From positions 1-56,938 of IMG/VR virus record IMGVR_UViG_3300027744_000022: a DNA stretch of 56,938 nucleotides, one strand, 5' to 3'. The notes below the pieces were generated by a model that was not told the DNA's origin, did no database searches, and was given only the letters and a program-made list of their open reading frames with translations. Below, in pieces: positions 7,274-55,707 of this stretch. Source of the stretch: a virus (Duplodnaviria > Caudoviricetes). Made by a program: the position numbers and the translations under genes. The number at the start of each line of letters is the position of its first letter. The first letter of the stretch is position 1.

Positions 7274-7548
7274 AGAACCACAACTACGTCACGCTCAGAG
7301 ATGATGGTATACTGACTGTCATCTATGAGCATCGTGAAGCTGTGACCCTTGTCGTAGTACAACTCGTCACCCTCCTCAATAACACTCACGTCAGTGCCGG
7401 GTGCTATCACGAAGGCACGTTTATAGCGTAGCTGATTGGTGTCCTCACCTGATAGTATTAGACCACTCTCCGTAGTAATGGTCTCTTGAATGTCTTTGAC
7501 GATTATATATTTCCCAATTGGTGTCATATTTTTATTGTTGCTGCTCAT
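7270..7548 (-). CDS. groES: Co-chaperonin GroES
   Basis: PIGKYIIVK, TESGLIL mobile loop, VIAPG, GDELYY, IISERDVV. Confidence 0.85.
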   Translation of the reverse strand: MSSNNKNMTPIGKYIIVKDIQETITTESGLILSGEDTNQLRYKRAFVIAPGTDVSVIEEGDELYYDKGHSFTMLIDDSQYTIISERDVVVVL

Positions 7549-9148
7549 AGGTACGAGCCATTGTGATAATTGCGTTAGTTGAAAGTATGGTTACTGCCAC
7601 ACTCACTGCGTTCTGCAGTGCACATCGTGTAACCTTTAGCGGGTCAATGACCCCCATCTCAATCAGGTCACCCATCTCACCTGTCTTTAAGTTGTATCCA
7701 TGACCAATAGGAGTTTTGTCCTTGTACACGTCACTCGGCTTTAGACCTGCATTAGCCAATATCTGTTGAAAGGGAGCCATCAGTGCATTGCGAACAATAA
7801 CAAGTGCGGCATTATACTCAACACTATTAGTCTCCTGCCCCAAGTCAGCACTCTCATCAAGCAATGCCTTGCCTGCTCCGGGCAATATACCCTCCTCTAA
7901 TGCTGAACGTACAGCACAGACAGCGTCATCAACCCTGTCGTACAGCTCCTTCTGCTCTAGGTCAGTCTGACCACCCACAAAGATGACACCTATGCCACCC
8001 GTAAGTGATGCTATACGCTCCAAGATAAAGTCTTTGTCACCCTTCTTAGTCGCCTCCTTGTGTGCGTTCCACAACTGTTTAACACGCTCCTCAATAATAC
8101 TTTCGTCAGACTTTGCTGCACTGCGAATGATGACCGTCTTGTCCTTGCTCACAATGACTTTACTTGCGTGACCCAAGTCACCGTAGTTGATGATGCTCAA
8201 GTCGTCACCCGTCTTCTCGCTGAAGTAGGTAGCACCCACACTTATCGCTATGTCATGCATCAGCTCGTGCTGCTTATAGCCAAAGTTGGGTGGCGGAACA
8301 GCCACAACCTTCAGGTTTCCCTTCATGCTGTTCGCTGCAAGCGTGTTTACCACGTTCGGATTGCACGGAGAGATAATGAGTAGCTTCTTGCCCTCACTAA
8401 TAATTGGCTTCAACACGTTCTCAATCTGAAGTATGTTTGCTATCTCTATGTCAGCCACCAATATCATCACGTCCTCAAACACACACTCATCCTTCTTGGT
8501 GTCATTGATGAACAGCGGACTTAAATACCCCCTGTCAATCTTTAACCCCTTGGTCGTCTCGGCATACGTCTCAGCCGTTTGGCTTCGCTCAACCGTAACA
8601 ATACCGGTCTTACCCACATCCTTGTACACCTCAGAGATAATACGACCTATCTCACGGTCATTATTTGCTGAGATAGATGCCACGTCTAATAGCATCGTAC
8701 TGCTGACCTTCTTTGCCTTACGCTTTAGCTTGTCCACCACCTTAGCAGTTATGTCCACCATATGTCTTAGCACCTCAGTCCTGTTCATCTCGTCCTTGAT
8801 ATGCTCAAGACCCCCCAACACTAACCCCTCAGTCAGCACAATAGCAGTAGTCGTTCCATCACCCGCAGCAGTAGCGGTCTTATCTGCCGCCTCCTTCATC
8901 ATCTTAACCGCAAGGTTCTCACTTGGGTCAATCAGGTCAATAGCTTTTGCCACAGTAACACCATCCTTAGTCACCGTAATACCGTGAGTATGATGCGGAC
9001 TCTCAATCAAGACCGTGTTCCCACTTGGACCCAAAGTTGACTTGACAGCCTTTGACATTTTAATAACTCCACTGATTAATTTCTTGCGTCCCTCGTTTCC
9101 GAACTGCAAGTCCTTGGGTGAATACCCAATACCCGATGTCTCTACCAT
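7532..9148 (-). CDS. groEL: Chaperonin GroEL
   Basis: STLGPSG, TKDGVTVAK, GDGTTT, DRVDDA, GVIDPLKV; 538 aa. Confidence 0.97.
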   Translation of the reverse strand: MVETSGIGYSPKDLQFGNEGRKKLISGVIKMSKAVKSTLGPSGNTVLIESPHHTHGITVTKDGVTVAKAIDLIDPSENLAVKMMKEAADKTATAAGDGTTTAIVLTEGLVLGGLEHIKDEMNRTEVLRHMVDITAKVVDKLKRKAKKVSSTMLLDVASISANNDREIGRIISEVYKDVGKTGIVTVERSQTAETYAETTKGLKIDRGYLSPLFINDTKKDECVFEDVMILVADIEIANILQIENVLKPIISEGKKLLIISPCNPNVVNTLAANSMKGNLKVVAVPPPNFGYKQHELMHDIAISVGATYFSEKTGDDLSIINYGDLGHASKVIVSKDKTVIIRSAAKSDESIIEERVKQLWNAHKEATKKGDKDFILERIASLTGGIGVIFVGGQTDLEQKELYDRVDDAVCAVRSALEEGILPGAGKALLDESADLGQETNSVEYNAALVIVRNALMAPFQQILANAGLKPSDVYKDKTPIGHGYNLKTGEMGDLIEMGVIDPLKVTRCALQNAVSVAVTILSTNAIITMARTYEQQQ

Positions 9149-10163: not shown

Positions 10164-10179
10164 GTGTCTTTATAGACAC
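10164..10179. repeat. Palindrome GTGTCT-TTAT-AGACAC
   Basis: Exact match; same CGTGTCTTTATAGACACTAAA context as the 10978 copy. Confidence 0.9.
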
Positions 10180-10312
10180 TAAAGGGACTAAAAGAGAGGG
10201 CTTAATACCTTGCTCGTTCATTCTTCGTTCAAATTTTGTTCAATAAAAAATCCCGCTTAACTCATTCAGAACCAAACAAATTGAAAATAATTGAAAAAAA
10301 GTGAAAATAAAA

Positions 10313-10343
10313 TTTGCATATATAAAGAATTAAACTAGATTTG
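10313..10343 (+). promoter_or_regulatory. Bacteroidetes sigma-70-type early promoter
   Basis: TTTG (10313-16), 19-nt spacer, TAGATTTG (10336-43); A-rich upstream. Confidence 0.75.
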
Positions 10344-10393
10344 AACATCGAATCAGCATGGAGCTGACTAGAATTAAACAAATAATCAAAAAT

Positions 10394-10975
10394 ATGAGCA
10401 CATTACTAGCAATTGAGAGCCACTTCCTAACCACTGCAAACGCAATCGAGGGGCTTAAACTACGTGAATTGAGACGGTTAACCACTGCCGATTTGAACGC
10501 CACTAAGAAGAGATTTGAAACTAGCTTGCAATTATCGCAAATTGTGGCAGAGGGGTTTGAATGGTATAAATCTACAGCGGGCAAAGCGACCATGGCAAAT
10601 GAGGGCATTACATGGAATGCTGAAGAATTTGCATTAAAAGTTTACGGATACCAAAAATCGTTTTTCTACAAATTGGTTAAGGCGGGAACGGTTGAAACGG
10701 TAAAGGTTGAAGAGTACAAAGAGTTTGAGCCTAACAATAGAACAATTGAGGGGTTATTAAAGTTTATCAAATCAGGTGGAGTAGACGCTGACAGTGAGGG
10801 TGGAAAAGATGGCGAAGAGTCTACAGAGAGACCGACCACGGTGTTGACATTCACGTACAAAACAGATGCGGGTAACGTGTCCGTACGGGTAGACTCAAAC
10901 GGCGTGGTAAAGACCACCAATACAATCGAGCAAATCAATCAGGCAATTGCATTTTTAATATCATCTATCAACTAA
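10394..10975 (+). CDS. Hypothetical early protein (possible HTH)
   Basis: ORF track 10358..10975; ATG 10394 has an A-rich leader. Confidence 0.65.
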   Translation: MSTLLAIESHFLTTANAIEGLKLRELRRLTTADLNATKKRFETSLQLSQIVAEGFEWYKSTAGKATMANEGITWNAEEFALKVYGYQKSFFYKLVKAGTVETVKVEEYKEFEPNNRTIEGLLKFIKSGGVDADSEGGKDGEESTERPTTVLTFTYKTDAGNVSVRVDSNGVVKTTNTIEQINQAIAFLISSIN

Positions 10976-10977
10976 CC

Positions 10978-10993
10978 GTGTCTTTATAGACAC
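10978..10993. repeat. Palindrome GTGTCT-TTAT-AGACAC
   Basis: Exact match, intergenic. Confidence 0.9.
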
Positions 10994-11008
10994 TAAAAAC
11001 CTAAAATT

Positions 11009-11878
11009 ATGAGCAATCAAGGTATTGTTTACACGACTACAGGTGAACACCAAAGAGGCGTAGTGACTAACTATCATTCTAAGCCCGCCCCTTTATTCCT
11101 TAACAAGACTAAGCACGCAATTGACGTGTCGGGGCTTAAAAAATCAGAGCAAAGTAAAGCCATCAAATTTGATGGAATGGATTTTGAGTCAAAATTCACA
11201 ATCGGTTTTGAAATTGAGAAGAATGAATTGAGCCGAAACGCTGTAAAGGAATATGAATTGTTTTGCGGTTTTGAGCGGGACGGGTCATGCGGTTATGAGG
11301 CGGTCACGCACGTGCTACCACTTTTGCCTGCGGGCAAATGGCGTACAAAGGTTTTTGATATGATACACAAAGCTGAAAAGATAATAGATGACCGTTTCAG
11401 CCCATCTGATAATCGTTGTGGCGGTCATATTACGGTCGCTGTAGATGGAATGACAGGTAGAGAGTTAAGACAGGCAGTCCGTAAAAATTCAGGCATAGTG
11501 CTTGCATTGTTTCGCAACAGGTTAAGGAATAGCTATTGCGGGCAAAACAACCGATTAGAAGACATTAGCACGGGCACACGTTATGAGGTGGCATTACCTA
11601 AGCATAATTGCTTAGAGTTTAGGTTACCGTCACGGTTTGAGAGTGTCAAGCAAGTAATGAGGCGATATGAGCTGTTTTATGAATTGGTTGATTTTAGTGT
11701 AAACAATCCAAACGGGTCGCACGAAGCGTTTCTGAAACGGATTAAGCCTATCATCCTATCCATGTACAATGGTGAAGAGAACAGAATTGATTTTATATTT
11801 AACGTAGCAAAGCGTTTCAGGAAATATATCTTAACAGGCATTATTGATGCTGAAATCAATTCATATATCTCAAGATAG
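11009..11878 (+). CDS. Putative amidoligase (COOH-NH2 ligase fold)
   Basis: GFEIE, DGS, YEAVT, CGGHITV and LEFR motifs. Confidence 0.7.
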   Translation: MSNQGIVYTTTGEHQRGVVTNYHSKPAPLFLNKTKHAIDVSGLKKSEQSKAIKFDGMDFESKFTIGFEIEKNELSRNAVKEYELFCGFERDGSCGYEAVTHVLPLLPAGKWRTKVFDMIHKAEKIIDDRFSPSDNRCGGHITVAVDGMTGRELRQAVRKNSGIVLALFRNRLRNSYCGQNNRLEDISTGTRYEVALPKHNCLEFRLPSRFESVKQVMRRYELFYELVDFSVNNPNGSHEAFLKRIKPIILSMYNGEENRIDFIFNVAKRFRKYILTGIIDAEINSYISR

Positions 11879-11884
11879 TACAAC

Positions 11885-11916
11885 ATGGGCTAGTGTCCGT
11901 AAAGACACTAGTCCAT
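11885..11916. repeat. Palindrome variant GTGTCC-GTAA-AGACAC (11893-11908) in an extended hairpin
   Basis: ATGGGCTAGTGTC...GACACTAGTCCAT. Confidence 0.85.
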
Positions 11917-11927
11917 TTACAATATTA

Positions 11928-11976
11928 CCGTACATAGGTAGTTGCCTATGCTGATGATTGCAAGAGCATGAAACGG
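11928..11976 (+). ncRNA. Type III hammerhead ribozyme HH1
   Basis: CCGUA^, stem I CAUAGG/CCUAUG, core CUGAUGA, stem II UGC/GCA with U.U at 10.1/11.1, GAAA, CGG. Confidence 0.75.
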
Positions 11977-12023
11977 AATTATAAACGCGTAGCGGTTAAA
12001 ACCCCTACACAAATTTAAAAATT

Positions 12024-12224
12024 ATGAGAACAGAGATTTTATTCAAATTAAAAATCAGAGGTACGTTTCACCGTGCGGGGTTTATTGCTGATAGTTCAGC
12101 AGATGAGTTGACACTAACCAAATTTGCTGATGGTACGATGATGCTAAAGCATGGACGTATTACCTTAAAGGATAGGTTTAGCGGTTGCAAATTATCAACT
12201 GATATGATTTTAAATTCAATTTAA
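12024..12224 (+). CDS. Hypothetical protein
   Basis: ORF track; first gene after HH1. Confidence 0.6.
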   Translation: MRTEILFKLKIRGTFHRAGFIADSSADELTLTKFADGTMMLKHGRITLKDRFSGCKLSTDMILNSI

Positions 12225-12226
12225 CT

Positions 12227-12337
12227 ATGGGCACGCAAATCACAATTTTCGAGGCTGTTATTATTGGCGGTCTGAGTTTATTCGTATGGCTTACTATTAA
12301 TGTATTAATTGAGGACTTTAAATCAAGAAAGAAATGA
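12227..12337 (+). CDS. Small membrane peptide
   Basis: Hand-translated MGTQITIFEAVIIGGLSLFVWLTINVLIEDFKSRKK; stop overlaps the next ATG. Confidence 0.5.
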   Translation: MGTQITIFEAVIIGGLSLFVWLTINVLIEDFKSRKK

Positions 12338-12906
12338 GACAGATTACAGAAAGGATTGTTCGAGCATTCGAGGGGCGTTACGAGTTCAGGATTGATAACA
12401 GTTACACTGATGGGCAAGGCTTATGGCTACATGGCAATAAGATAGCTATGTGGGACGGTAACTTATGGATTACAAATGCAGGATGGGAAAGCAGGGTCAC
12501 AAAGGAACGGTTAAACGGGCTGAGTGGAGTCAGGATTAGTGTAAGGCGTGGCGTATGGTTTCTGAATGGCAGGGAGTGGAACGGGGCATGGACTAACGTA
12601 TGGAATTGGGACGTGTACGGTGGTCGCCAATATGAGCCTGAGTGTCAAGCGGTGGCTAATGAGCCTGAGTTTGACACGACAAGCGAATGGATGCCTGAGG
12701 GCTACAGCAAGCCCGTGTACAGCGTCTTTCATTCGTTGGTGGAGTCAGAGCTTGAGGCGGTGGAGGCGTTGCTTACAGAGGCGGGCATACCAACAAAAAG
12801 AATGGAGTCAGATACTCAAGGCGTGTACAGACCAAACTACTTTATAGTGGTTCGTCCTGATGACGTAGTAAAAGCAATAAATATTTTAACAAACAATTTA
12901 AATTAA
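12334..12906 (+). CDS. Hypothetical Trp-rich early protein
   Basis: ORF track. Confidence 0.65.
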   Translation: MRQITERIVRAFEGRYEFRIDNSYTDGQGLWLHGNKIAMWDGNLWITNAGWESRVTKERLNGLSGVRISVRRGVWFLNGREWNGAWTNVWNWDVYGGRQYEPECQAVANEPEFDTTSEWMPEGYSKPVYSVFHSLVESELEAVEALLTEAGIPTKRMESDTQGVYRPNYFIVVRPDDVVKAINILTNNLN

Positions 12907-12912
12907 ATAGAA

Positions 12913-13263
12913 ATGGAAAGATATGAAATAATGAATACCAATGATGGGTATATGATTTGGGACAAAAATGAAGAAGATAATGTACATGACAATTTAGGCA
13001 ATAATCTTTGGGACACAATGGAAGAAGTAAACAATGTATTAAATAAATCAAAAATGAAAAATCAAATGAAAATTAGAGATGCGTTTGTGTGGTTATTTGT
13101 AACCGACAAAGCAAAAGAGGTGTTCAGTTCAGGACTATTCGAGGTGTACAAGTTCCACGATGACGGGAGCGAGAGCCTGTGTGAGTCACTTGATGACATT
13201 AACGATGCGTTGGAGTCGGGTATTGACTTAGCGATTGAGGTTGGGCATTTATATAATGCTTAG
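12913..13263 (+). CDS. Hypothetical acidic protein
   Basis: ORF track. Confidence 0.6.
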   Translation: MERYEIMNTNDGYMIWDKNEEDNVHDNLGNNLWDTMEEVNNVLNKSKMKNQMKIRDAFVWLFVTDKAKEVFSSGLFEVYKFHDDGSESLCESLDDINDALESGIDLAIEVGHLYNA

Positions 13264-13272
13264 CAAGTGGGT

Positions 13273-13288
13273 GTGTCTGTGAAGACAC
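13273..13288. repeat. Palindrome GTGTCT-GTGA-AGACAC
   Basis: Exact match; abuts HH2. Confidence 0.9.
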
Positions 13289-13339
13289 TCCGTCCCTGAG
13301 TGAGTGCTCGGGCTGATGAGTTCAAAAGAACGAAACGGA
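13289..13339 (+). ncRNA. Type III hammerhead ribozyme HH2
   Basis: UCCGUC^, stem I CCUGAG/CUCGGG (loop UGAGUG), CUGAUGA, stem II GUUC/GAAC (loop AAAA), GAAA, CGGA; fully canonical. Confidence 0.92.
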
Positions 13340-13386
13340 ATTTCAAACCCGTAGGGTTTAAACACCCTACACAAACAAAAAAAATT

Positions 13387-13569
13387 ATGACAAATTATTT
13401 AGCGTGTGCTATTGCAGAAGGTTTTTGCGAGGGCGAAGGAGCAACAAGAGAGCAACAAATCGAGGCGTGGCAGTACTTGCACGATACGGGGTTGGCTTAT
13501 TCTTTACAAGGTTGGTACGGACGTACAGCAACACAATTAATTGAGGAAGGTATTATTAAATCAAATTAA
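13387..13569 (+). CDS. Hypothetical protein
   Basis: ORF track 13300..13569; true ATG probably 13387, downstream of the ribozyme cassette. Confidence 0.65.
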   Translation: MTNYLACAIAEGFCEGEGATREQQIEAWQYLHDTGLAYSLQGWYGRTATQLIEEGIIKSN

Positions 13570-13570
13570 A

Positions 13571-13756
13571 ATGAGAACAGAAACAATTGAAGAGCGGAAT
13601 GAATTAATTCAGAACGTAATTGACAGGCTATTGTATTTGCCTGAGAAGGAGTTAGTTGAGTACGAGATGTACTTGAATAGGCTTACAGCAGTTTATCAAA
13701 TACCTATGGAGGTAAAAAATGGAGTTAGAATTTATGAAACAATTAAAAATCTATAA
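13571..13756 (+). CDS. Hypothetical protein
   Basis: ORF track, trimmed to ATG 13571. Confidence 0.55.
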   Translation: MRTETIEERNELIQNVIDRLLYLPEKELVEYEMYLNRLTAVYQIPMEVKNGVRIYETIKNL

Positions 13757-13757
13757 G

Positions 13758-13943
13758 ATGCAAGAGAATCAAACAGATTTATTCGAGCAGTACGAGACAC
13801 TGCCTGAATCAGTACGTGCAATCATTGACGCAATAAATGAATACTATTATTCCATAATGGAAGCCAAAAGAAGGATGAATGATATTGGATACACCTTTGA
13901 TTATGGTATTGACTTTCAACCCTATAATCTAAAGAAAATATGA
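13758..13943 (+). CDS. Hypothetical protein
   Basis: ORF track, trimmed to ATG 13758. Confidence 0.55.
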   Translation: MQENQTDLFEQYETLPESVRAIIDAINEYYYSIMEAKRRMNDIGYTFDYGIDFQPYNLKKI

Positions 13944-14221
13944 CAAGACCAAATGATGTGTGGGAGTGTTCAGAGTGTTCACGCCAACAAGGTCGCCACG
14001 ATATGTGGTTTGATAGTAACTTATGTGAAAGTTGCAATGAGAGACTAGTCCCGTGCAGGGGGTGCGGTACTAAAGCAGGTGTCATTGAAGAGAGTGACGC
14101 TTATGGATATAGTACGGGGCATTGGTGCGGAGATTGTTACTACAGCGACAAGTATCCGTATCGTAAAGATAGGTACTTCGATGAGTCGTATGCAGGTGAA
14201 CGGTTAGAGGACGATTATTAA
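13940..14221 (+). CDS. Zinc-finger protein
   Basis: Four CxxC pairs. Confidence 0.65.
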   Translation: MTRPNDVWECSECSRQQGRHDMWFDSNLCESCNERLVPCRGCGTKAGVIEESDAYGYSTGHWCGDCYYSDKYPYRKDRYFDESYAGERLEDDY

Positions 14222-14231
14222 ATTAAACAAG

Positions 14232-14381
14232 ATGAGAGATTATATTTTTTCAGCGTATTATTACCACGACCCGATGAGGTTTGTAAAAGTAAAGGCACGC
14301 ACAAGGGCAAGAGCCTATGAGTTGGCAAGAGTCAAAGCAATCAGAATAAAAAACGATTTAGATTTAATAGAATTAATATGA
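14232..14381 (+). CDS. Small hypothetical protein
   Basis: Hand-translated 49 aa MRDYIFSAYYYHDP... Confidence 0.45.
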   Translation: MRDYIFSAYYYHDPMRFVKVKARTRARAYELARVKAIRIKNDLDLIELI

Positions 14382-14479
14382 AAAACTTAAGAAACATTGA
14401 TTGGTTAAAATGGATTTTAGCCACAACAACAGGATTGTATTTAATATTCGGAATAGTATCAGCAGTTAAAAACCTATAA
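14378..14479 (+). CDS. Small membrane peptide
   Basis: Hand-translated MKNLRNIDWLKWILATTTGLYLIFGIVSAVKNL. Confidence 0.45.
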   Translation: MKNLRNIDWLKWILATTTGLYLIFGIVSAVKNL

Positions 14480-14480
14480 G

Positions 14481-14642
14481 ATGGAAAATAGTCACTATTT
14501 CAATGTCTATTATGGTGAGGTATGCGTATGGTCAATAGTCGCCCACACAAAGTGGGAGGCTATTGACAAAGCATACTATAAATTCATTGAACAGCATCCA
14601 AAATTGGAACGTAAAAAATTTGACGCAAGAATAGTTTATTAA
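14481..14642 (+). CDS. Small hypothetical protein
   Basis: Hand-translated 53 aa MENSHYFNVYY... Confidence 0.5.
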   Translation: MENSHYFNVYYGEVCVWSIVAHTKWEAIDKAYYKFIEQHPKLERKKFDARIVY

Positions 14643-14648
14643 AATAAA

Positions 14649-14680
14649 TTTGCTTATGTCAGATAAATGTCGTATCTTAG
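14649..14680 (+). promoter_or_regulatory. Probable promoter
   Basis: TTTG-N20-TATCTTAG (one mismatch to TAnnTTTG). Confidence 0.45.
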
Positions 14681-14708
14681 TTCATTATTCGTTCATTACT
14701 TAGGTTCT

Positions 14709-14724
14709 GTGTCTTCATAGACAC
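14709..14724. repeat. Palindrome GTGTCT-TCAT-AGACAC
   Basis: Exact match, between the promoter and ATG 14745. Confidence 0.9.
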
Positions 14725-14744
14725 TGCCTATTAAACAAAAAACT

Positions 14745-15854
14745 ATGTGTATAATTATTATCAAGCAAGCAGGGAAGACAGTTCCTCAGGAGGTTGCAAA
14801 GACTTCGGCACGCATCAACCCTCACGGGTTGGGCGTTATTTGGTTGGACACGTTTCACGTGACGTACCACAAGTCAGCAGAGTACAAGGTGTTGGATACA
14901 GAGCGTCCGTTCATTGCTCACTTCAGATACGCTACAGTCGGTGCTATCAACAGAGATAACACACACCCGTTCAGGTGTGGTAACAACAAGCAGGAGTGGC
15001 TTATGATGAACGGTACTATCAGGGCATTGGGTAACCACAACCAAAGTGACTCAAGAGTGTTGGCTGAGAATCTTGGGCGTATACCACGCCACAAGTGGAA
15101 GCAAGAGTTGGAGCGGTATGAGTGCAGGTTCGTGACAATCAACACGTACAGCAGGACGTTTCAGATTTACAACAAAGAATTGTGGGTTCAGAAGGATGGC
15201 GTATGGTACAGCAAAGACAATGTGTTAGAAGACAATTTAGTTGCCGTGTATGGCACGCTCAAGAAGGACTACAGCAATTACTACAGCTACCTTACTAGTT
15301 CAAAGTACATCGGCAAGGGGCAGACCAAAGACAGGTATCCGTTGGTCATCAAGGGGCTACCTTATTTGATTGAGGACAAGGGCAGAGGTCACAATGTGGA
15401 GGTGGACATATTCAAAGTCAGTGGAACAGTGTTGGCTGAGTTGGATAGGTTGGAAGGTCATCCTAATTGGTACAGGAGGAAGCAGGTTGACATCAAAGCC
15501 ACAGATGGCAGGGTGTTTTACTGTTGGATATACTTCAATATCAGGGAGCGTTCAGCAGGCGAGGTTCACCACAAGACGTACACACAGAAGCCATATCAAT
15601 ACAGTTGGTATAAGGAGCAGGACGAGGTGGAGACGGTCAGGTCACTCAGTAGGTTCACTGAGCGAGACTTAGACCTACTTGAGATATACAAAGATGACTG
15701 CGAGGAATGTGAGTTTGACATTCAGAATGAGAAGCCAATTTGTGTAAATTGCTTTCACGATTTGGAGCATGATGAGTTCGCAAACTATCATTGCAGTGGG
15801 TGCGATGAGTGGTTCACTGAGTCTGATGTGCTACGATTTCAGCATTGGGACTAA
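14745..15854 (+). CDS. Class II glutamine amidotransferase / gamma-glutamylcyclotransferase (AIG2-like) / Zn-ribbon fusion
   Basis: Cys2, HFRYAT, NTHPF, MNG (Ntn GATase); VAVYGTLK, LDRLEG..WYRR (GGCT); C-terminal CxxC pairs. Confidence 0.85.
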   Translation: MCIIIIKQAGKTVPQEVAKTSARINPHGLGVIWLDTFHVTYHKSAEYKVLDTERPFIAHFRYATVGAINRDNTHPFRCGNNKQEWLMMNGTIRALGNHNQSDSRVLAENLGRIPRHKWKQELERYECRFVTINTYSRTFQIYNKELWVQKDGVWYSKDNVLEDNLVAVYGTLKKDYSNYYSYLTSSKYIGKGQTKDRYPLVIKGLPYLIEDKGRGHNVEVDIFKVSGTVLAELDRLEGHPNWYRRKQVDIKATDGRVFYCWIYFNIRERSAGEVHHKTYTQKPYQYSWYKEQDEVETVRSLSRFTERDLDLLEIYKDDCEECEFDIQNEKPICVNCFHDLEHDEFANYHCSGCDEWFTESDVLRFQHWD

Positions 15855-15860
15855 GGCTAT

Positions 15861-15886
15861 GGGTGGTGTCTGTGAAGACACTACCC
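15861..15886. repeat. Palindrome GTGTCT-GTGA-AGACAC (15866-15881) in an extended hairpin
   Basis: GGGTGGTGTC...GACACTACCC. Confidence 0.9.
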
Positions 15887-15937
15887 TCTGTATTGGGATG
15901 AGTGTCCCAACTGATGAGTCTAAAAAGACGAAACAGA
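15887..15937 (+). ncRNA. Type III hammerhead ribozyme HH3
   Basis: UCUGUA^, stem I UUGGGA/UCCCAA (loop UGAGUG), CUGAUGA, stem II GUCU/AGAC (loop AAAA), GAAA, CAGA. Confidence 0.92.
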
Positions 15938-15983
15938 TTTTTAATCCGTAGGATTTAAAACCCTCCTGCATAAATAAAAAATT

Positions 15984-16322
15984 ATGAAAAGTGAAATCAA
16001 GTTCAACCACAATGCCAAATCATTGACAAGGGCGTTGGGAATGAGTCAATCAACTGAAGAGGTTGCAGTGGCTATTACAATGGCAGTAGCAAAGTGGTCT
16101 AAAGACAGTTCAGGTTCTTTTAGTTTAAGCATCCTGTCTGAGTACCTACACAAGGAGTTGTCTCATGAGGCAATCTTAATTCTTGCAACACAAAGCGTAC
16201 ACGACAAACTTCAAGATGCGTTTAAGGATAGCGGTCAGCTCAAAAAGTTAATGGAGATGCTAGAATCATTTGAGAGGAGAGAGTATGGCGATGAGATTGA
16301 AAGAAAAATAAGGGAGAATTGA
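15984..16322 (+). CDS. Hypothetical protein
   Basis: ORF track; first gene after HH3. Confidence 0.65.
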   Translation: MKSEIKFNHNAKSLTRALGMSQSTEEVAVAITMAVAKWSKDSSGSFSLSILSEYLHKELSHEAILILATQSVHDKLQDAFKDSGQLKKLMEMLESFERREYGDEIERKIREN

Positions 16323-16323
16323 T

Positions 16324-16548
16324 ATGCAAGTATTTATAATCAAGACCACAGAGTGGTCAGAGGATGACTTTTATATAATGACATCCTTAAGCGATGAGCA
16401 AATCAGGAAAGTAATTCAGCCCATTGTTAATTACGAGCGAGAGAATTATTTGGTGGGGAATCCGTTTGACTACCTATCAGCATTGCACGTAGCGTACACA
16501 AGAGCAATAATCATATCAGAGGAACATTTTGAGTCAATACAGTTATGA
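16324..16548 (+). CDS. Hypothetical protein
   Basis: ORF track. Confidence 0.55.
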   Translation: MQVFIIKTTEWSEDDFYIMTSLSDEQIRKVIQPIVNYERENYLVGNPFDYLSALHVAYTRAIIISEEHFESIQL

Positions 16549-16676
16549 TGCACTTTTTTGAAGAAGAGCCTGAGAAAGAAAATCGTATTTTTTGGGTAGT
16601 AATATTAGCAGTTGCAATAGTTGTAATTGCTTTTATTGTAGAGATTTTTGTAGGATTTTACTTAAATATAAATTAA
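16545..16676 (+). CDS. Small membrane peptide
   Basis: Hand-translated MMHFFEEEPEKENRIFWVVILAVAIVVIAFIVEIFVGFYLNIN. Confidence 0.5.
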   Translation: MMHFFEEEPEKENRIFWVVILAVAIVVIAFIVEIFVGFYLNIN

Positions 16677-16681
16677 ATCAA

Positions 16682-16918
16682 ATGGAACAGTTAACAGAGG
16701 TACAAAAAGCAAAAGCCATCTTGAAGCAACATGGTTATTTTGTAGACAATTTATGGAGTGTAAGTGACGTGACAGACCGTTACGAATGCACAGAAGAACA
16801 GGCACAAGATGTTCTTGATACGGCATTAAACAATGAAGCGACAATGGAGCAGATATTTTATGCCATTGGCGATGCGTGTGATTGTGAAAACATTGAATTA
16901 AAAGAGGAGGAAAAATAA
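16682..16918 (+). CDS. Hypothetical acidic protein
   Basis: ORF track, trimmed to ATG 16682. Confidence 0.6.
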   Translation: MEQLTEVQKAKAILKQHGYFVDNLWSVSDVTDRYECTEEQAQDVLDTALNNEATMEQIFYAIGDACDCENIELKEEEK

Positions 16919-16919
16919 C

Positions 16920-17315
16920 ATGGAAATCACAATCAAACAAACAATCAGCAGGGAGGTCTTGGAAGACATTTTTGTTACGGCATTAGAGGGTGGCAGTAAC
17001 TATTGGTACTACCTGCCTGAGGAATCAATTAAAGCAATACGCAAGGCAGTTCCTAAGTCAGAAGACCCGTATATCAGTACAGCCATTCTTAAGGCAATCT
17101 TAGACCACAATGTAAAAGTTCTTGTCAATGATGCAGAGGATGAGGATGAGTTAATTGGTATGATTACACGGGGCACTATGCAGGCAAGACTACAGTTGCT
17201 ATCAGATAGCGAACATAGGTGGGCATTAGAAAGCCATGTACGTGAGGATGGCGATGCAAGTTCAGCAGATGTAGTGTTTCAATACTTAGCGATGGGGGAG
17301 GTGGTATATGGATAA
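16920..17315 (+). CDS. Hypothetical phage protein
   Basis: ORF track; ALEGGSNYW...ADVVFQ...GEVVYG. Confidence 0.7.
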   Translation: MEITIKQTISREVLEDIFVTALEGGSNYWYYLPEESIKAIRKAVPKSEDPYISTAILKAILDHNVKVLVNDAEDEDELIGMITRGTMQARLQLLSDSEHRWALESHVREDGDASSADVVFQYLAMGEVVYG

Positions 17316-18400: not shown

Positions 18401-19033
18401 ATGGAAAAGAAAAAATCAGTTTTCGAAAGGCTATCCGCCATCAATGTGAATGAGCACGTTGAGAAGAAAAAAGACCTTACCTACCTATCATGGGCGTGGG
18501 CATGGTCAGCAACTAAACGTGAGTGTCCTGATGCTACCTATAAAGTATTGGATACAGACTACGATGATGCCCTCGGGTTTATGTGTAACACTAGCGTAAC
18601 CATTGAGGGAGAGACATTGCAGATGTGGCTACCGGTTATGGATAGTTCAAACAAGTCAATGCTTAAGCGTTCTTATACCTACAGCACACGCTTTGGCGAT
18701 AAGACAGTTGAGCCTGCAACAAGTTTCGACATTAACAAGACTTTGATGCGTTGCTTGGTGAAGAACCTTGCTATGTTCGGTATGGGAATCTATATCTATG
18801 CAGGTGAGGATTTACCTGAGGGTGAGCCTGCGGTTGCAAAGAAGCCTGAACTTGCGGTGGCAAAAGAATTACCTGAGTTACAAAAGGGTACAGAGATTTG
18901 GGATGCCGTTGTTAAGTACGTAACAACCAACAAGGCTTTAGGTCTTGAGAAGATTGGTGGTCAGTTAGTTCGTAAGTACAAGATTAGTCCTGCTATCAAG
19001 AAAGAAATTGCTAACCTTATAAACGCACAGTAA
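18401..19033 (+). CDS. Sak-type single-strand annealing protein (DUF1071-like)
   Basis: LTYLSWAWAW, MWLPVMD, DINKTLMRCLVK..A.FG.G.YIYAGEDLP. Confidence 0.85.
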   Translation: MEKKKSVFERLSAINVNEHVEKKKDLTYLSWAWAWSATKRECPDATYKVLDTDYDDALGFMCNTSVTIEGETLQMWLPVMDSSNKSMLKRSYTYSTRFGDKTVEPATSFDINKTLMRCLVKNLAMFGMGIYIYAGEDLPEGEPAVAKKPELAVAKELPELQKGTEIWDAVVKYVTTNKALGLEKIGGQLVRKYKISPAIKKEIANLINAQ

Positions 19034-19776
19034 TGAAAGAGGAATTAGAAATAATAACAGAATTACGTGATGATTATCAATACTACAAAGGTGTAGGAAA
19101 GCATTATCTATCCAACTCAGACATAGGCGTGTTGCTCAGTAACCCTCAGGACTTCGGTAAGGATAGGGAAGACAGCAAAGCGTTCATGGATGGCAGATAC
19201 TTCCATCAGTTAATCTTAGAGCCTGAGAGGGCTAAAGAGATGTTAAGCGTTGATGTGAGTACACGTACAACCAAAGAGTACAAAGCGTTCTGTGAGGATA
19301 ACAATCTTCCATTTTGTATGCTTAAGAAGGAGCAGGATGAGATACAAGGTCTTGTGAACATTATTAATGGGAACATTGCGTTCTACGATGAGATTTACAA
19401 GGCAGGGAATCTGTATGAGACTCCGGCAGTTGGTATGATACAAGGCGTGATGTGGAAGGGTAAGGCGGACATTGTTACAGATGACTCCGTGATTGACCTT
19501 AAGACTACGAGCGACATTCATAAGTTCAAGTGGACTGCAAAGGCATACAACTACGACTCTCAGTGCTATATCTATCAGAGTTTGTTTGGGAAGCCATTGG
19601 TGTTCTACGTGATTGACAAGGGCACAGGTGTTCTTGGAATCTTTAGACCAACAGAAGACTTTGTAAAAGGTGGCGAGTTAAAGGTAGGCAGAGCGATTGA
19701 GGTGTTTAATAAATACTTTGGTTCTGCTCCATCAGATGACATTGTCAACTATTACATTGACGAGTATCTATTATAA
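19033..19776 (+). CDS. PD-(D/E)XK exonuclease (RecE/ExoVIII-like)
   Basis: LSNS, G..FH, KGKAD, IDLKTT, Y..Q...Y; coupled to the annealing protein gene. Confidence 0.8.
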   Translation: MKEELEIITELRDDYQYYKGVGKHYLSNSDIGVLLSNPQDFGKDREDSKAFMDGRYFHQLILEPERAKEMLSVDVSTRTTKEYKAFCEDNNLPFCMLKKEQDEIQGLVNIINGNIAFYDEIYKAGNLYETPAVGMIQGVMWKGKADIVTDDSVIDLKTTSDIHKFKWTAKAYNYDSQCYIYQSLFGKPLVFYVIDKGTGVLGIFRPTEDFVKGGELKVGRAIEVFNKYFGSAPSDDIVNYYIDEYLL

Positions 19777-19782
19777 AAAAAT

Positions 19783-19798
19783 GTGTCTGTAAAGACAC
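19783..19798. repeat. Palindrome GTGTCT-GTAA-AGACAC
   Basis: Exact match, 4 nt before tRNA-like element 1. Confidence 0.9.
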
Positions 19799-19802
19799 AA
19801 AT

Positions 19803-19876
19803 GGTCAGGTGGCGTAGTTTTTCCTCATAGTTTTTTACGTGTTGGTACTTCATGGGTTCGAATCCCATCCTGACCT
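19803..19876 (+). ncRNA. tRNA-like element 1 (no anticodon arm)
   Basis: Acceptor GGTCAGG/CCTGACC and T-arm ATGGG-TTCGAAT-CCCAT; the middle cannot form an anticodon arm. Confidence 0.65.
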
Positions 19877-20115: not shown

Positions 20116-20188
20116 AGTCAGGTGGCGAAAATGGTTAAACGCTATGGGCGACTGCTCTATTGTATAGGTTCGAATCCTGTCCTGACTA
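20116..20188 (+). tRNA. tRNA-like element 2 / pseudo-tRNA (nominal anticodon ACT, G33)
   Basis: Acceptor AGTCAGG/CCTGACT, D-arm GCG/CGC with GG, T-arm ATAGG-TTCGAAT-CCTGT; weak anticodon stem. Confidence 0.6.
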
Positions 20189-20265
20189 CACCCAATCATT
20201 AACTTAGCCTCAGAGGTTAGTGGTTGGTAAACATAGCCTGAGGCAATACTTAACAATTAAACACA

Positions 20266-20569: not shown

Positions 20570-20595
20570 GGGGGAGTCTATCTTCCCCTTTTTTT
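20570..20595 (+). terminator. Intrinsic terminator
   Basis: GGGGGAG-TCTAT-CTTCCCC followed by T7. Confidence 0.75.
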
Positions 20596-40929: not shown

Positions 40930-43900
40930 TTAAATTAAATTACTACAATTACAACAAACATCTTCTATATCTACATTTGAATAACATAGGGTAACCGGTG
41001 TTGATTGTCTAAAATCCCATATTAAATACAAATAATCATTAAGTGAAGGTACAGTAAAATCAGCATAGTTATATGTTCCACTTCCTACATTTGGTGTTGC
41101 TGTTGTTGCTAAACCTAATAGAATATTTATATCAACAGTATTATTTCCGTACAATGTATTGGTAACGTGGTATTTAAAACTATCAGAAGCACTATCAAAA
41201 ACAAATGTATCAGAAGCAAATTGATTTGAAATTAAACTCATTACACTTCCTGCAGGTGGAAACGCACCTGTACCTATAAAATCTGTAATTATATTATATC
41301 TTGAAATAAGTGGATTAGTAGTTCCACTATCAAAAATTACAAGAGCTGATTGCAATGGAGATGTAAAGGCTCCACTTACATACCTATATTGCGTATGCAC
41401 GGTCTGTGCTGAATCGTAATCGCTTGTTAGTACAATTTGTACTATGCTAAGAGATGCTGAATCAGGGCAGCTCGCAAGTACCTGTAGGACAATATCTCCT
41501 GTGTAGTCAATTGTAATGGTTGCAGTCTCTACAGAAATAGTGTCTTTATTAAAAGATAGCACTCCACTTGTACTAACTACTCCCGTTGTATTAATATTGC
41601 CATCGTAATCAACAGTTATCTCAAAATCACCACCTGCACTTATACTTAATACATTATATGTTATATCCGTGACGCCTATAGTAGGACCTAAATCAACACA
41701 ATACTCTACTTGTCCTTGTACTTGAGGTAACGTACTTAGTGTAAACGTCTGAGCAATACCACAAGCCAAACACTGTGGATTGGTTGGAAGTTCAATGTCA
41801 TTGCTTGACAGTACGTACTCATTCATGTATGGGTCAAATGAACCAAGTTTTTGAGTATTGAATGATGTATTAAACTCATCTCTAAAATAAGTACGCATAT
41901 TCATCTCAGAGACAACTTTAAGTTGGTCGTTTGAGTATGAATCTCCTTTTAGCTGTATAACAGCTCCACGTTTTACATCAGTAAAGTATCTATCATAACC
42001 CCACTGTACATAACTCTCAGCATTAAAGCTGATGCCATATTTCTCAGTGCGTGTAATTTGGTTTCCTAATACCTCAGGTACCGAAGCTATAACGCCACCT
42101 CCTGTTGAGTCAGATATAAGATTCTTACTAGACAAGACATAAGATATTTTGTCTTCTTGTAACACAAGAATGTCATTGGCTCTACCATCTAAGATATAAA
42201 TATCTCCAAATGACGGCTCCAATACTTTATAATTTAGCAATCCTAAGTTAAACTCATTTAGCTTATTTACATTTGATTCAGCACTGTACACGCCACTATA
42301 TGTAATATCAGAGAACCTATCAGCTTCTTTATAGTCCTGAGCAGATACGCTTGTAACCCTATTCCCAAGATTAAAAGAGTTCCCTACAATTGAGTCTCTT
42401 ATTTTATAACTCTCGGCTCCATTACCAAAGGCAAAACAATTAAAGAACTTAGTATCCACAATAGCCGGTAAAGGCGGTATTGCACTAATATCTTGGTTTT
42501 GAACATTGCCCATGTGATTACCATTCGTAATTGCAAATGACATCTCATTCTCAAAAAACACATCAGGCAATGCATCGGATGGTTCTGTTTCAAATATTAT
42601 TGTTTTATCTGAACGAAATACAGTAATATTAACTTCTACGTTTGATGCACGAGCATTAGGTTGAAAAAGACCCGTACATGGCAACGTGCCTGTAACCATT
42701 AACTCAAGTTGGTTAGTCGTTATATTTCTAATAAATCTATAATAATTAATACATAAAGCGGTTGATATATCGTTTATAGTATTAGTTATTGTTGATATAA
42801 ACTCATTATCAGGAATACAGTCTCCACCTCCTGCATATCTTATTCCATCATTTAAAAACTGCTGTACATTTTCACCAACAAACCAATCATACATATTATC
42901 GTATGAGTTTCCTGATATAATAGTTCTTTCTAATGTATTTCTTCTTTCCTCACAAAGACTACCTACACCATCTCTCCATTGTTTTATAGAAAGAAGTATT
43001 CGACTACCTGAAGGAACATCATAATCTGAAAATTCCCAAGTAGGGTTTGTTGGGTCAAATCCTGCTGTTTGAGCAGTATTCATTGGATAGTATAGTATAG
43101 GATAAGGTCCTCCTTTAGGAGAAGTTTCTTTTATTTTACCGGGTGCTATAATAGCTTGTTGGTCCTGAACAATATTAAAACTGTTAGGATTAATTTTCAT
43201 GTAAACTCCGGCAGGAATAGGAATAAAAACAGAAGGGTCTAATTCGGTTGGTATCTCAATAAAGTCTGAACTCTGAGAAGATTTCTCAAGAACAGTAGCA
43301 TACACACAAGATGTAGTAGCACCATTTGAATCAGCTTTTACTATTAATCTATCTCCCGTTTCAATCTTACGTGCATTCTCACCCTCAAGTAAGAAATATG
43401 CATTATTAGTAAGTGGGTCTTCAAAAAATATACTACAATATATTGTCTCGTAATTCTCTTCGTCAGGCTTTATTACAAATTTATATCGTGTAGCCCACGC
43501 AGGAGGAAGTTGTTGTATGGGTATAGTTACTTGAATTGAATTTTTAAATGCAGATAATCCACATGGTATATGTTCTGTATTTGTAGGACTAACCAATGCG
43601 GTTGTTGCTCTATTAAACTCATCCATGTAAACAATACCAATCTCATAGTCACGATTACTGTGTAAACTTTGAGGATTTGCTATTTCTTGAAATGTAGCTT
43701 CAGCAAAAGTAACTTGATAGTATTCATAAAATGTTTGAGTTGGAGTAGTTGTGTTATCAACATATTGCATTGCAGGAAATTGTAATCCAATTTCACTACT
43801 TGCAGGACTTGTAACAATCCCTATTGGCTCACCAACTGCACTTATTCCACTATTATTTTTTATATATGCATTTAAGTTATTTGGTATTGCACAGTTGAAT

Positions 43901-45378: not shown

Positions 45379-46302
45379 TTATTTTATCTGCTTGTCCATA
45401 CCCCTCATGTTCATTAAGAGTCTGCCCGGATGAATATTGCTAATTCTTATTTTTGCATTGTTTAACAATGCTTTTCTTTTTTTACGAGCACGAGCAATAA
45501 CATATTCTTGAACACCAAGTTTAGAACTTAATATTTCATATTCTATTGCTGCATAGATGTAGGCTTCAAACAATTTATTTACCGTAATCAATGAATTATC
45601 TCCACCCTCCATGCCATCTGATACGTATTCTAAGATGCATTGCTCTCCTGACATTGGAGAATCAAAATTTATAACTCCTGATTTTCTATCAATATTAAAT
45701 GTAGGATTAAAGTTTGCAGTCTCTGTATTTAATCCATAAGCTCCCCCTATGCTATTCTCAAAAACCCATCCCCCATCAATATTCCAACCTGATTGCCCAT
45801 CAAATTGATTATTTTGATTTAGATATATGCTTTTTTTCAGATGCGTTAATCTATCATAGTCAATCTCAGAGTATTGTGGAGATAGTGCATTACCATCTTG
45901 GTCAAACAAAATCCTGCCTGTATTATCTTGAAGATATGCTTTAGACGAAATTGTTTGAATATTCTCAGATAATGGTCTAAGCAATCCATCTTTGTACATA
46001 GATATACGAACCCAATTTATATAATCAGAAGGTAGAATATACCTTAAGTTATCAGGTACCGTTAGTTCTAATACTTTTATTTCTTTAAAAGCATCGTAAT
46101 TTAATTCTTGTATAGCACGCTTAGTATGAAACTCTATTTTATAACGAGGTTCGTTATTAACTAAAGAGTGATTTCCTGAGTACATCAACTGAAAATTATT
46201 GACAATGTCAGTTAAACTAACATATTGATAAGAACCCCAATTAGCATCTTCAGGAAGTACTCCTGCATTCTCATAATATTGATACTGTGATATATATGCC
46301 AT
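45379..46302 (-). CDS. Tail ring/adaptor protein
   Basis: LPSDYINWVRIS, ILEYVSDG; context. Confidence 0.65.
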   Translation of the reverse strand: MAYISQYQYYENAGVLPEDANWGSYQYVSLTDIVNNFQLMYSGNHSLVNNEPRYKIEFHTKRAIQELNYDAFKEIKVLELTVPDNLRYILPSDYINWVRISMYKDGLLRPLSENIQTISSKAYLQDNTGRILFDQDGNALSPQYSEIDYDRLTHLKKSIYLNQNNQFDGQSGWNIDGGWVFENSIGGAYGLNTETANFNPTFNIDRKSGVINFDSPMSGEQCILEYVSDGMEGGDNSLITVNKLFEAYIYAAIEYEILSSKLGVQEYVIARARKKRKALLNNAKIRISNIHPGRLLMNMRGMDKQIK

Positions 46303-46313
46303 ATCTTAAAAAT

Positions 46314-47267: not shown

Positions 47268-47292
47268 TAGTTCTTTTTTTTCAAATATACAT

Positions 47293-47324
47293 AAAAAAAA
47301 AGAGGGTACAACAAGTACCCCCTC
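47293..47324 (-). terminator. Intrinsic terminator
   Basis: GGGTAC/GTACCC stem followed by T9 on the - strand. Confidence 0.7.
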
Positions 47325-47354
47325 CTCAATAATTAGTCAATAATAAAAGTTTTA

Positions 47355-48098: not shown

Positions 48099-48127
48099 TA
48101 TTTATTTAATTTAATTTAATTTAATTT

Positions 48128-48160
48128 AAAAAAGGAGAGTGTCTTTAAGGACACCCTCCT
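48128..48160 (-). terminator. Capsid-gene terminator containing a palindrome variant (48139-48154)
   Basis: - strand AGGAGGGTGTCC-TTAA-AGACACTCTCC-TTTTTT. Confidence 0.75.
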
Positions 48161-48176
48161 ATCAATTACTGTCTTA

Positions 48177-49595: not shown

Positions 49596-49616
49596 TTTTT
49601 TTTAATTTAAATTGTT

Positions 49617-50714: not shown

Positions 50715-50760
50715 TTGATTTAATTTGATTTATACAAACTTAGATAAAAATTCTCATATT

Positions 50761-55445: not shown

Positions 55446-55707
55446 ATCCTTGTTTTGTATCTGTTCTGCTTACTCCACGCTCTGCGGAGTCAAGATTTTC
55501 TTTTTCTAATTCTATTCTACTTAGTATCTCAAACGCATCAAAGATAGCTAACTTTTTAGCGGCTGCTGCATTCTTCATTTTATCTGCAGATACATCAGTA
55601 TCTGACTCGGTATTAATAATATCTTCTTCAGCTACTTTAATAAGATGTGATACCGCTTTATACCCTGCCTCAATGATTCTTAACTTTATCTCTCTAGTAT
55701 CTCTCAT
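55420..55707 (-). CDS. Putative terminase small subunit
   Basis: 95-aa helical protein overlapping the terL start. Confidence 0.5.
   Translation of the reverse strand: MRDTREIKLRIIEAGYKAVSHLIKVAEEDIINTESDTDVSADKMKNAAAAKKLAIFDAFEILSRIELEKENLDSAERGVSRTDTKQGFAERRSKQ

Follow-up and report, generated by a model that had tools for sequence, protein, structure and literature searches.

A conserved hairpin-hammerhead unit between genes of an uncultured phage and its relatives, and its proposed role in message self-processing

Background

Why would a phage interrupt a tightly packed run of genes with long gaps, each of which carries what looks like a self-cleaving RNA? The question is raised by a single IMG/VR virus record of an uncultured lake phage, IMGVR_UViG_3300027744_000022, whose whole length of 56,938 bases (completeness estimate 94%) was analysed here and is referred to as the window. 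The long open reading frames (ORFs) between approximately 10,358 and 26,750 are on the + strand and tightly packed, and three of the gaps that separate + strand ORFs stand out by their length: 11879-12023, 13264-13387 and 15855-15983. An earlier note, made from the letters of the sequence, had described a cassette of one design in each gap, punctuating an "early operon". The cassettes, their shared order and coordinates, their stem I sequences and their cleavage-site positions (11932, 13294 and 15892) had been read correctly; the term "early operon" was an inference of that note.

Here we describe the three cassettes and their counterparts in related phage contigs. By every structural criterion applied, the three central elements are genuine type III hammerhead ribozymes, with cleavage predicted. 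The units in which they lie are probably devices for self-processing, each a site at which a polycistronic phage message cuts itself. Alternatives in which a protein-binding palindrome, gene exchange, translation or RNA circularization has the leading part are weighed below, each beside the evidence that bears on it.

Three type III hammerheads in one orientation

A hammerhead core consists of C3 U4 G5 A6 N7 G8 A9, G12 A13 A14, an A15.1-U16.1 pair and a cleavage-site base, N17, that is not G. Every catalytic-core position is present in all three window copies, which carry CUGAUGA and GAAA and a U preceding the cleavage-site base (A, C and A, respectively). The pattern CTGATGA-N(6-30)-GAAAC occurs exactly three times in the 56,938 bases, always at a unit, where 0.21 occurrences would be expected, and 0 of 100 shuffled sequences reached three. 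Each gap follows the same order. Behind the stop codon comes an extended GTGTC-N6-GACAC hairpin, then a complete type III hammerhead that a short linker separates from a second hairpin, and finally the A-rich leader with ATTATG at its end. The elements, with lengths in nucleotides (nt) or base pairs (bp), are as follows.

11885-11916, + strand: upstream hairpin of unit 1; 13-bp stem around GTGTCCGTAAAGACAC (11893-11908), starting 7 nt past the stop codon of gene 11009-11878; the minimum free energy (MFE) fold also has the 13-bp stem
11926-11979, + strand: type III hammerhead of unit 1; stem III CCGU/ACGG, core CUGAUGA, stem II with U.U at 10.1/11.1, then GAAA
11989-12008, + strand: second hairpin of unit 1, GUAGCGG...CCCCUAC, followed by the A-rich leader and ATG 12024
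13270-13291, + strand: upstream hairpin of unit 2, around GTGTCTGTGAAGACAC (13273-13288, GUGA loop), with one U.U mismatch
13288-13341, + strand: type III hammerhead of unit 2; predicted cleavage after C13294, stem I CCUGAG/CUCGGG (one U.G), G-C at 10.1/11.1
13351-13370, + strand: second hairpin of unit 2, GUAGGG...CCCUAC, followed by the leader and ATG 13387
15861-15886, + strand: upstream hairpin of unit 3; 11-bp stem around GTGTCTGTGAAGACAC (15866-15881), its end coinciding with the start of stem III
15886-15939, + strand: type III hammerhead of unit 3; predicted cleavage after A15892, stem I UUGGGA/UCCCAA, G-C at 10.1/11.1
15948-15969, + strand: second hairpin of unit 3, GUAGGA...UCCUGC, followed by the leader and ATG 15984

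In unit 1, cleavage is predicted after A11932, stem I is CAUAGG/CCUAUG, and all three hammerhead stems are recovered in the MFE fold. In unit 2 the outer GG/CC pairs of the upstream hairpin extend 3 nt into the 5' strand of stem III. The three units share one orientation (+) and enclose blocks of 4 and 7-8 small genes.

The Rfam model Hammerhead_3 (RF00008), which the earlier note had proposed as a check, gave a divided answer: in the 4.8 kb searched it matched unit 2 (41.3 bits, 13287-13341, E 1.1e-6) and unit 3 (42.1 bits, 15885-15939, E 6.5e-7), both below the gathering score of 48.5, and did not report unit 1 at E<=10. At gathering thresholds, Rfam returned only one tRNA. This shortfall reflects the short loops and the 4-5 bp stem III of the phage elements, together with the U.U at 10.1/11.1 in copy 1. 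Because these scores were sub-threshold, a covariance model, R1, was built from 102 hammerheads of related phage contigs; the window itself was left out, as were L011 and L063, the two relatives closest to it. Run with filters off, R1 scored unit 2 at 74.7 bits, unit 3 at 71.7 and unit 1 at 55.9 (E 3.4e-14), the fourth-best match in the window reaching 10.9. The alignments to R1, and those of units 2 and 3 to RF00008, span the full length of the model with stems I and II closed by loops and stem III open, which is the type III topology.

The earlier note had taken the retention of stem I pairing in the face of sequence change as a sign of selection on structure, and the 102 relatives' hammerheads bear this out, since their stem I is 100% paired and 6/6 of its pairs covary. 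Over the 15 pairs of the whole alignment, 95.1% of 1526 cells are paired, compared with 69.6% after column shuffling and at most 44.8% with slid partners, and 12 of the 15 pairs have changes on both sides. The covariation score was 0.729 against 0.230 in shuffles, none of 500 shuffles reaching the observed score. Loop bases are conserved as well: T14 is invariant, and G15, T18 and A38-A40 are each present in at least 90% of the copies, a pattern that fits a putative tertiary contact between loop I and loop II.

A hairpin-hammerhead unit in related phages

The unit is conserved in many related phages, and the absence of the cassette from relatives, which the earlier note had given as grounds for refuting its reading, is thereby ruled out. 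A hairpin-based pattern (palindrome, gap of 18-46, hammerhead core) recovered the hairpin and hammerhead together in at least 103 IMG/VR stretches, mostly on contigs of 40-65 kb, a single stretch containing as many as five units; by a rough estimate, a pattern with 22 fixed bases would yield only a few hits by chance in a collection of that size. This and all later counts of relatives apply to the loci recovered, about 100 per scan, rather than to IMG/VR as a whole. R1 gave 206 matches at E<=0.001 in 100 loci, and 159 distinct units were parsed, one false hammerhead call (L081, - strand) having been dropped.

A second scan of IMG/VR was blind to the hairpin and relied on a loop I word plus the core. 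Among the 76 distinct validated hammerheads of this sample, 39 have the GTGTC...GACAC hairpin, 31 have some other strong hairpin at this position beside stem III (GGAGUCCGUUAUAACGGAUUCC or GGGGGCUUCGGCCCCC, for instance), and 6 have a weak hairpin or none. With 70 of 76 carrying a strong hairpin, what stays constant is a stable hairpin immediately 5' of stem III, and the palindrome is its commonest form. Selection thus acts on the hairpin adjoining stem III whatever its sequence.

In the 137 palindrome-bearing units, flanking bases usually lengthen the stem to 8-13 bp. At its 3' end the hairpin is directly adjacent to stem III in 38 units, shares 1 nt with it in 32 and shares 2-7 nt with it in 45. 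A tail of 3-6 nt beyond the hairpin is predicted to remain after cleavage in 107 of the 137. On the other side, an ORF start follows in 159/159 units at a median of 22 nt from the ribozyme end (10th-90th percentile 18-44), and the intervening leader is 51% A and 4% G. Translation in Bacteroidota initiates on unstructured A-rich leaders rather than by Shine-Dalgarno pairing, and the A-rich, G-poor leader fits hosts of this kind. The conserved unit is best described as a hairpin, a hammerhead and a short A-rich leader. One locus, L010 (approximately 1637-1740), shows a reversed order, in which a different hairpin precedes the hammerhead and a GTGTCTTCAAAGACAC hairpin follows it in the leader.

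Five GenBank records were searched whole with R1. Flavobacterium phage vB_FspP_elemoA_7-9A (NC_055852.1) contains one match, a type III hammerhead at 19083-19138 on the - strand (41.3 bits, core CUGAAGA), which is placed 13 nt upstream of the start codon of gp62, the gene that opens a divergent operon; it has no upstream hairpin and is unannotated in the record. Cellulophaga phage phi19:3 gave a weak match (21.1 bits), and no hammerhead was found by R1 in MW202828, phi38:1 or Gundel_1. Hammerhead arrays are thus known only from uncultured contigs, and elemoA_7-9A is a cultured, laboratory-tractable relative.

A possible coupling of the cleavage-site base to positions 10.1/11.1

The identity of N17 varies among the phage hammerheads, and it does so together with positions 10.1/11.1. 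In a set of 195 distinct hammerheads, those with C17 have G-C at 10.1/11.1 in 111 cases, U.U in 1, A.A in 5 and G.U in 0; those with A17 have G-C in 23, U.U in 40, A.A in 0 and G.U in 2; and those with U17 have G-C in 0, U.U in 5, A.A in 8 and G.U in 0. When each distinct stem I is counted once, which controls relatedness only in part, chi-square is 57 (p ~1e-11). N17 is the Watson-Crick complement of 10.1 in 159/195 (C with G, A with U, U with A); given any one-to-one mapping of the three states, the complementary one has a 1 in 6 chance of arising. Within groups sharing stem I, coordinated switches occur from A/U.U to C/G-C in six groups and from A/U.U to U/A.A in one. In the window the positions concerned are 11932 with 11958 and 11969 in unit 1, and 13294 and 15892 in the other two. 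We found no description of such a coupling in the literature searched; 11.1, G10.1 and C17 are absent from the main text of Perreault et al., the supplements lying outside that coverage. If real, the coupling would bear on the tolerance of this much-studied ribozyme's active site for different cleavage sites.

The palindrome as a separate element

The palindrome is not confined to the units. GTGTC-N6-GACAC occurs 13 times in the window, where 0.18 copies would be expected and 0 of 100 shuffles reached 13. Three copies belong to the units (at 11893, 13273 and 15866) and 4-5 lie inside genes; others stand at gene junctions that have no ribozyme:

10978-10993, strand not assigned: palindrome without ribozyme, between the stop codon of gene 10358-10975 (3 nt away) and ATG 11009 (15 nt away)
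14709-14724, strand not assigned: palindrome without ribozyme, 20 nt before ATG 14745 (GATase/GGCT gene)
19783-19798, strand not assigned: palindrome without ribozyme, 7 nt past the stop codon that ends gene 19033-19776; a tRNA-like sequence follows closely

That tRNA-like sequence (19803-19876; acceptor and T arms) is called by neither ARAGORN nor Rfam, and the tRNA that is called, at 20116-20189, is a tRNA-Ser with an unusual anticodon, ACU, and a low Rfam score (39.7 bits). A further copy, at 48139, has its stem extended to approximately 10 bp and is followed on the - strand by a T run (48134-48160); it resembles an ordinary intrinsic terminator after the gene for a 472-aa virion protein. 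Beside two stand-alone palindromes there is also a 16-nt word, GTTCATT-N-TTCGTTCA, at 10216-10231 and 14680-14695, that is, 37 nt after the palindrome at 10164 and 14 nt before that at 14709.

Across all loci, 508 distinct palindromes were collected, of which 142 lie beside a hammerhead, 203 stand alone no more than 45 nt from an ORF start, and the other 163 are elsewhere. Beside a ribozyme the stem has a median of 3 extra contiguous pairs, against 0 for the others. In MW202828, the nearest GenBank relative, the early region (MW202828.1, 43000-55600) contains 14 identical 16-nt copies of GTGTCGTTAACGACAC, about 9 of them laid out as stop codon, palindrome, leader and ATG among small early genes. 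With ribozyme-free palindromes in this phage and longer stems beside ribozymes elsewhere, the ribozyme seems to have been inserted between a junction hairpin that was already there and its leader, the hairpin having been reinforced where the ribozyme is present.

Such observations raise an alternative in which the 16-nt palindrome is primary: it would be a sequence-specific site, in DNA or RNA, for a phage or host protein, either a regulator or a hairpin-specific endoribonuclease, and the hammerhead would be an optional addition or a replacement cutter. A protein partner is the obvious candidate to explain the sequence conservation of the palindrome core. This alternative accounts for the 13 window copies with their 4-5 intragenic members, for the absence of a ribozyme at most of the 508 palindromes (including the 203 close to an ORF start) and for the ribozyme-free series in MW202828; moreover, stand-alone copies have only a minimal 6-bp stem, which is weak for a mere exonuclease block. 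It is countered by the 31 of 76 hairpin-blind hammerheads with a different strong hairpin in the same place, where structure can replace the palindrome sequence, and no candidate binding protein appeared among the small neighbouring proteins in Pfam and PHROG searches. A palindrome-binding protein is also compatible with self-cleavage. We regard primacy of the palindrome as rather unlikely.

Gene content around the units

Gene content was compared in detail in four genomes, the window and its relatives L063, L011 and L078, and it changes at the units. After unit 1 the window has a gene of 66 aa, L063 has an unrelated one of 81 aa, and L078 has an extra gene and an extra unit. The 60-aa gene after unit 2 is absent in L063 and replaced in L011, and in place of the 112-aa gene after unit 3, L078 has a 49-aa membrane-like ORF. 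BLAST blocks stop at the 3' edges of the ribozymes: of the 8 relatives listed, 7 have a block end at 13340 and 6 have one at 15936-15946.

These facts, with the PeSL cassettes of T4-type phages as a possible analogy, could mean that the units are mainly recombination junctions for swapping early genes among related phages, RNA function being secondary. Conserved islands between diverged genes, however, yield such block ends automatically, and no recombinant junction or circle was seen. A perfect catalytic core and compensatory changes in three stems show selection on a folded RNA and not merely on DNA homology. As a leading function, recombination seems unlikely to us; exchange of genes at the units is in any case compatible with RNA function rather than an alternative to it.

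Genomic setting, transcription signals and RNA data

The + strand region encodes, by protein family scans, a Sak-type annealing protein, an exonuclease, a BT4734-like primase and a helicase, and the structural genes of the window are on the - strand. A full-length GroEL-type chaperonin (Cpn60_TCP1, 198.8 bits; PHROG 5725) is encoded at 7532-9148 on the - strand. The terminase is most similar to that of MW202828 (77.7%), followed by those of Flavobacterium elemo phages (44%) and of Cellulophaga and Tenacibaculum phages (31-38%), and on this ranking the host is therefore likely to belong to the Flavobacteriia. The large window proteins were scanned for a phage-encoded RNA polymerase and none was found, in a scan that did not cover every ORF; a 2799-aa protein matched LPD23 only. 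The small proteins beside the units gave no informative Pfam or PHROG family, and none suggesting an RNA-binding or RNase partner.

Promoter patterns occur at background levels. A sigma-70 scan found 38 matches where 34.5 were expected, and a Bacteroidota-type pattern found 5 where 3.74 were expected, which is no enrichment; weak matches of the latter type lie at 10313-10343 and 14619-14652, and the second of these could split the region into two transcription units. No sigma-70-like or Bacteroidota-type match falls in the three gaps. A terminator-like match at 15861-15886 is the hairpin of unit 3 itself, which has no proper U tract. The idea that the palindrome serves as a promoter or classical intrinsic terminator in the three units was dropped, given the background-level promoter scans and the lack of a U tract in unit 3. 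A clean + strand terminator is found at 20570-20588.

Three lake-water metatranscriptome runs, which contained 6-20% of the sampled words, yielded 18 contig pieces of 151-249 nt on 11000-17000. None of them covers, bridges or ends at a hammerhead, and this coverage is too sparse to bear on transcription or cleavage either way.

The second hairpin

The earlier note had counted the GTAG...CTAC hairpin downstream of the ribozyme among the parts of a composite cassette. Hairpin, hammerhead and leader are indeed conserved as a composite; the downstream hairpin is not, since a leader hairpin of -6 kcal/mol or better is present in only 20/159 units, 3 of which are those of the window. Within these 20, 14 share one form (UAAACC, stem, UUU(R)AAAC loop, stem, ACAAA), and their stems include the compensatory variants GUAGGG/CCCUAC, GUAGGA/UCCUGC, GGAGG/CCUCC, GAAGG/CCUUC and GAGGG/CCCUC. 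Both the form and the variants were read by eye, a MAFFT alignment of the 14 having placed the 5' strands in differing registers. We conclude that the second hairpin is a real motif, though an optional one.

An additional pairing was noticed by eye at 11980-12010, 13343-13372 and 15940-15970, where a conserved AAACC(C) just upstream can pair with GG(G)UUU, which belongs to the 5' strand and loop of the hairpin; the two partners have changed together in unit 3 (AAUCC/GGAUU). The second hairpin and this competing hairpin are mutually exclusive and could be the two states of a switch.

Proposed mechanism and alternatives

Hammerhead cleavage leaves a 2',3'-cyclic phosphate on one product and a 5'-OH on the other. 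Starting from the observed identity, covariation, geometry and conservation of the units, the self-processing model supposes that the region is transcribed and that cleavage takes place in vivo. The type III hammerhead would fold during transcription and cut after N17 (A11932, C13294 and A15892). The upstream product would then end in a stable hairpin of 8-13 bp plus a few nucleotides with a cyclic phosphate terminus, and by analogy with intercistronic hairpins and the RNase III products of T7, this hairpin-capped 3' end should resist 3' exonucleases. The downstream product would begin with a 5'-OH at the base of stem I, followed by the folded ribozyme, the A-rich leader and the start codon, and the folded ribozyme may, again by analogy, shield the new 5' end.

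The overlap between hairpin and stem III is the reason for proposing that the two compete. Before cleavage, a hairpin that adjoins or overlaps the 5' strand of stem III would stack on this short helix; after cleavage, it would displace the stem III strand and thereby favour product release over religation. The net effect would be that the stability and translation of neighbouring genes become independent of upstream context with no host RNase needed. Stand-alone palindrome junctions could work likewise if a host endonuclease cut the A-rich leader, the ribozyme making the cut immediate and host-independent.

Several findings weigh against the self-processing model. Unit 1 is a geometric outlier: the earlier note had envisaged units with a 3' hairpin and a 5'-OH structured leader, and such products do follow, as predictions, from the anatomy, but the unit 1 hairpin stops 9 nt short of stem III, at 16 nt before A11932, so that the short-tail geometry fails. 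The unit 1 ortholog in L063 has an identical layout. The MFE folds of units 2 and 3 lack stem III, and the Rfam gathering score, which is a database criterion rather than a structural feature, is reached by 0/3 window copies. Most loci were recovered with patterns taken from the window, which biases the sampling of the family. The palindrome is without a ribozyme in 366 of its 508 distinct copies, some of them within genes, and its core is conserved in sequence and not just in structure; a pure role as 3' end cap for the ribozyme does not explain these copies. Finally, MW202828, with no hammerhead by R1, also gave no Rfam family at E<=0.1 over 43000-55600. The earlier reading, sound in outline, is thus partly supported: it makes too much of the five-part cassette and too little of the palindrome as an independent element.

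The narrow spacing between ribozyme end and ATG admits a different emphasis, in which the ribozyme mainly aids downstream translation, the cut providing a free 5' end with a folded cap approximately 22 nt from the start codon. The engineered RiboJ insulator is used to make downstream expression context-independent (PMC8794103), and self-cleavage is reported to enable translation in some fungal and plant RNA viruses (PMC13725137). These precedents are eukaryotic or engineered, however, and ribozyme-free palindromes lie at a similar distance from start codons, which leaves a mainly translational role improbable.

With three ribozymes in one orientation, the segments bounded by two hammerheads (11933-13294 and 13295-15892) would carry a 5'-OH and a 2',3'-cyclic phosphate, ends that fit the substrates of RtcB, and a host RtcB-type ligase might join them into circular or spliced RNAs. 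The hairpin beside the 3' end argues instead for a protected linear end, and circular or spliced products of clustered bacterial hammerheads were sought and none found by Perreault et al. (PMC3088659). The data examined here likewise contained no such joint. We consider ligation of this kind very improbable.

A joint reading, which we offer tentatively and with less confidence than self-processing by itself, would combine several of these elements. The hairpin and hammerhead would form a bipartite RNA machine, in which the hairpin stacks on the short stem III and invades it after the cut, making the reaction irreversible and leaving a capped 3' end; the units would also be points at which single early genes are exchanged across a large clade of Flavobacteriia phages; and the matching of N17 to 10.1 (in the 159 complementary cases) would reflect a contact in or near the active site.

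The phage family offers a natural data set of about 200 distinct ribozymes in one fixed context, and the geometry of the unit gives concrete predictions for both RNA ends. The stand-alone palindromes and the ribozyme-free relative, moreover, constitute a built-in comparison of junctions with and without self-cleavage. The purpose of bacterial and phage hammerheads was said to need further work to define in a 2019 review (PMC6765202).

Comparison with known systems

Compared with the type III hammerheads of RF00008, the phage family has the same core (CUGAUGA, GAAA, A15.1-U16.1, N17 not G), the same three helices with stem III open and loops on stems I and II. It differs in its very short stem III (3-7 bp, mostly 4-5) and in a large minority of members with U.U or A.A instead of G10.1-C11.1.

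The early mRNA of phages T7 and T3 contains intercistronic RNase III sites, and REP (repetitive extragenic palindromic) elements are protective intercistronic hairpins. As at the T7/T3 sites, a polycistronic phage message would be cut between genes and the upstream product would end in a hairpin; there, however, a host protein cuts within a long duplex, whereas in the phage units the RNA itself would cut just 3' of the hairpin and leave cyclic-phosphate and 5'-OH ends. The PeSL cassettes of T4-type phages (PMC2839356, PMC4122927) reportedly consist of a stem-loop and an early promoter repeated between small variable early genes. The resemblance lies in a short stem-loop cassette among small variable early genes at which gene content shifts; the place of the early promoter in PeSL is taken here by a ribozyme, and the three gaps contain no promoter match.

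The closest natural precedent is that of Perreault et al. 2011 (PMC3088659), in whose main text clustered hammerheads are described as flanking genes in prophages and phages, and the processing of long phage transcripts into gene-length mRNAs is proposed; cleavage was shown in vitro and in E. coli for three arrangements. Like the three of the window, the hammerheads of those clusters are intergenic, share one orientation and surround single genes or short blocks of varying identity. Unlike them, they comprise types I-III, come from prophages of Clostridium, Azorhizobium and Agrobacterium, and have no conserved hairpin fused to stem III in the main text. The literature search, whose coverage excluded subscription journals and supplements (including the Perreault et al. 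alignments), found no description of a hairpin fused to phage hammerheads. The earlier note did not recognise its composite as described, and this search agrees for the hairpin composite; clustered hammerheads and the processing idea were already in print. The concept of clustered hammerheads has been known since 2011; the hairpin-ribozyme composite, together with its geometry and its occurrence across a clade of Flavobacteriia phages, would seem to be undescribed in the literature searched.

The units are, lastly, a natural counterpart of synthetic ribozyme insulators. RiboJ, as described in PMC8794103, joins the type III hammerhead of sTRSV (satellite tobacco ringspot virus) to a 23-nt hairpin, its purpose being to remove upstream RNA and give a constant 5' leader. 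Its order of hammerhead, linker, hairpin and initiation region is that of all three window units. RiboJ has no upstream hairpin in that description, whereas in the phage family it is the downstream hairpin that is the rarer and the upstream one that is constant.

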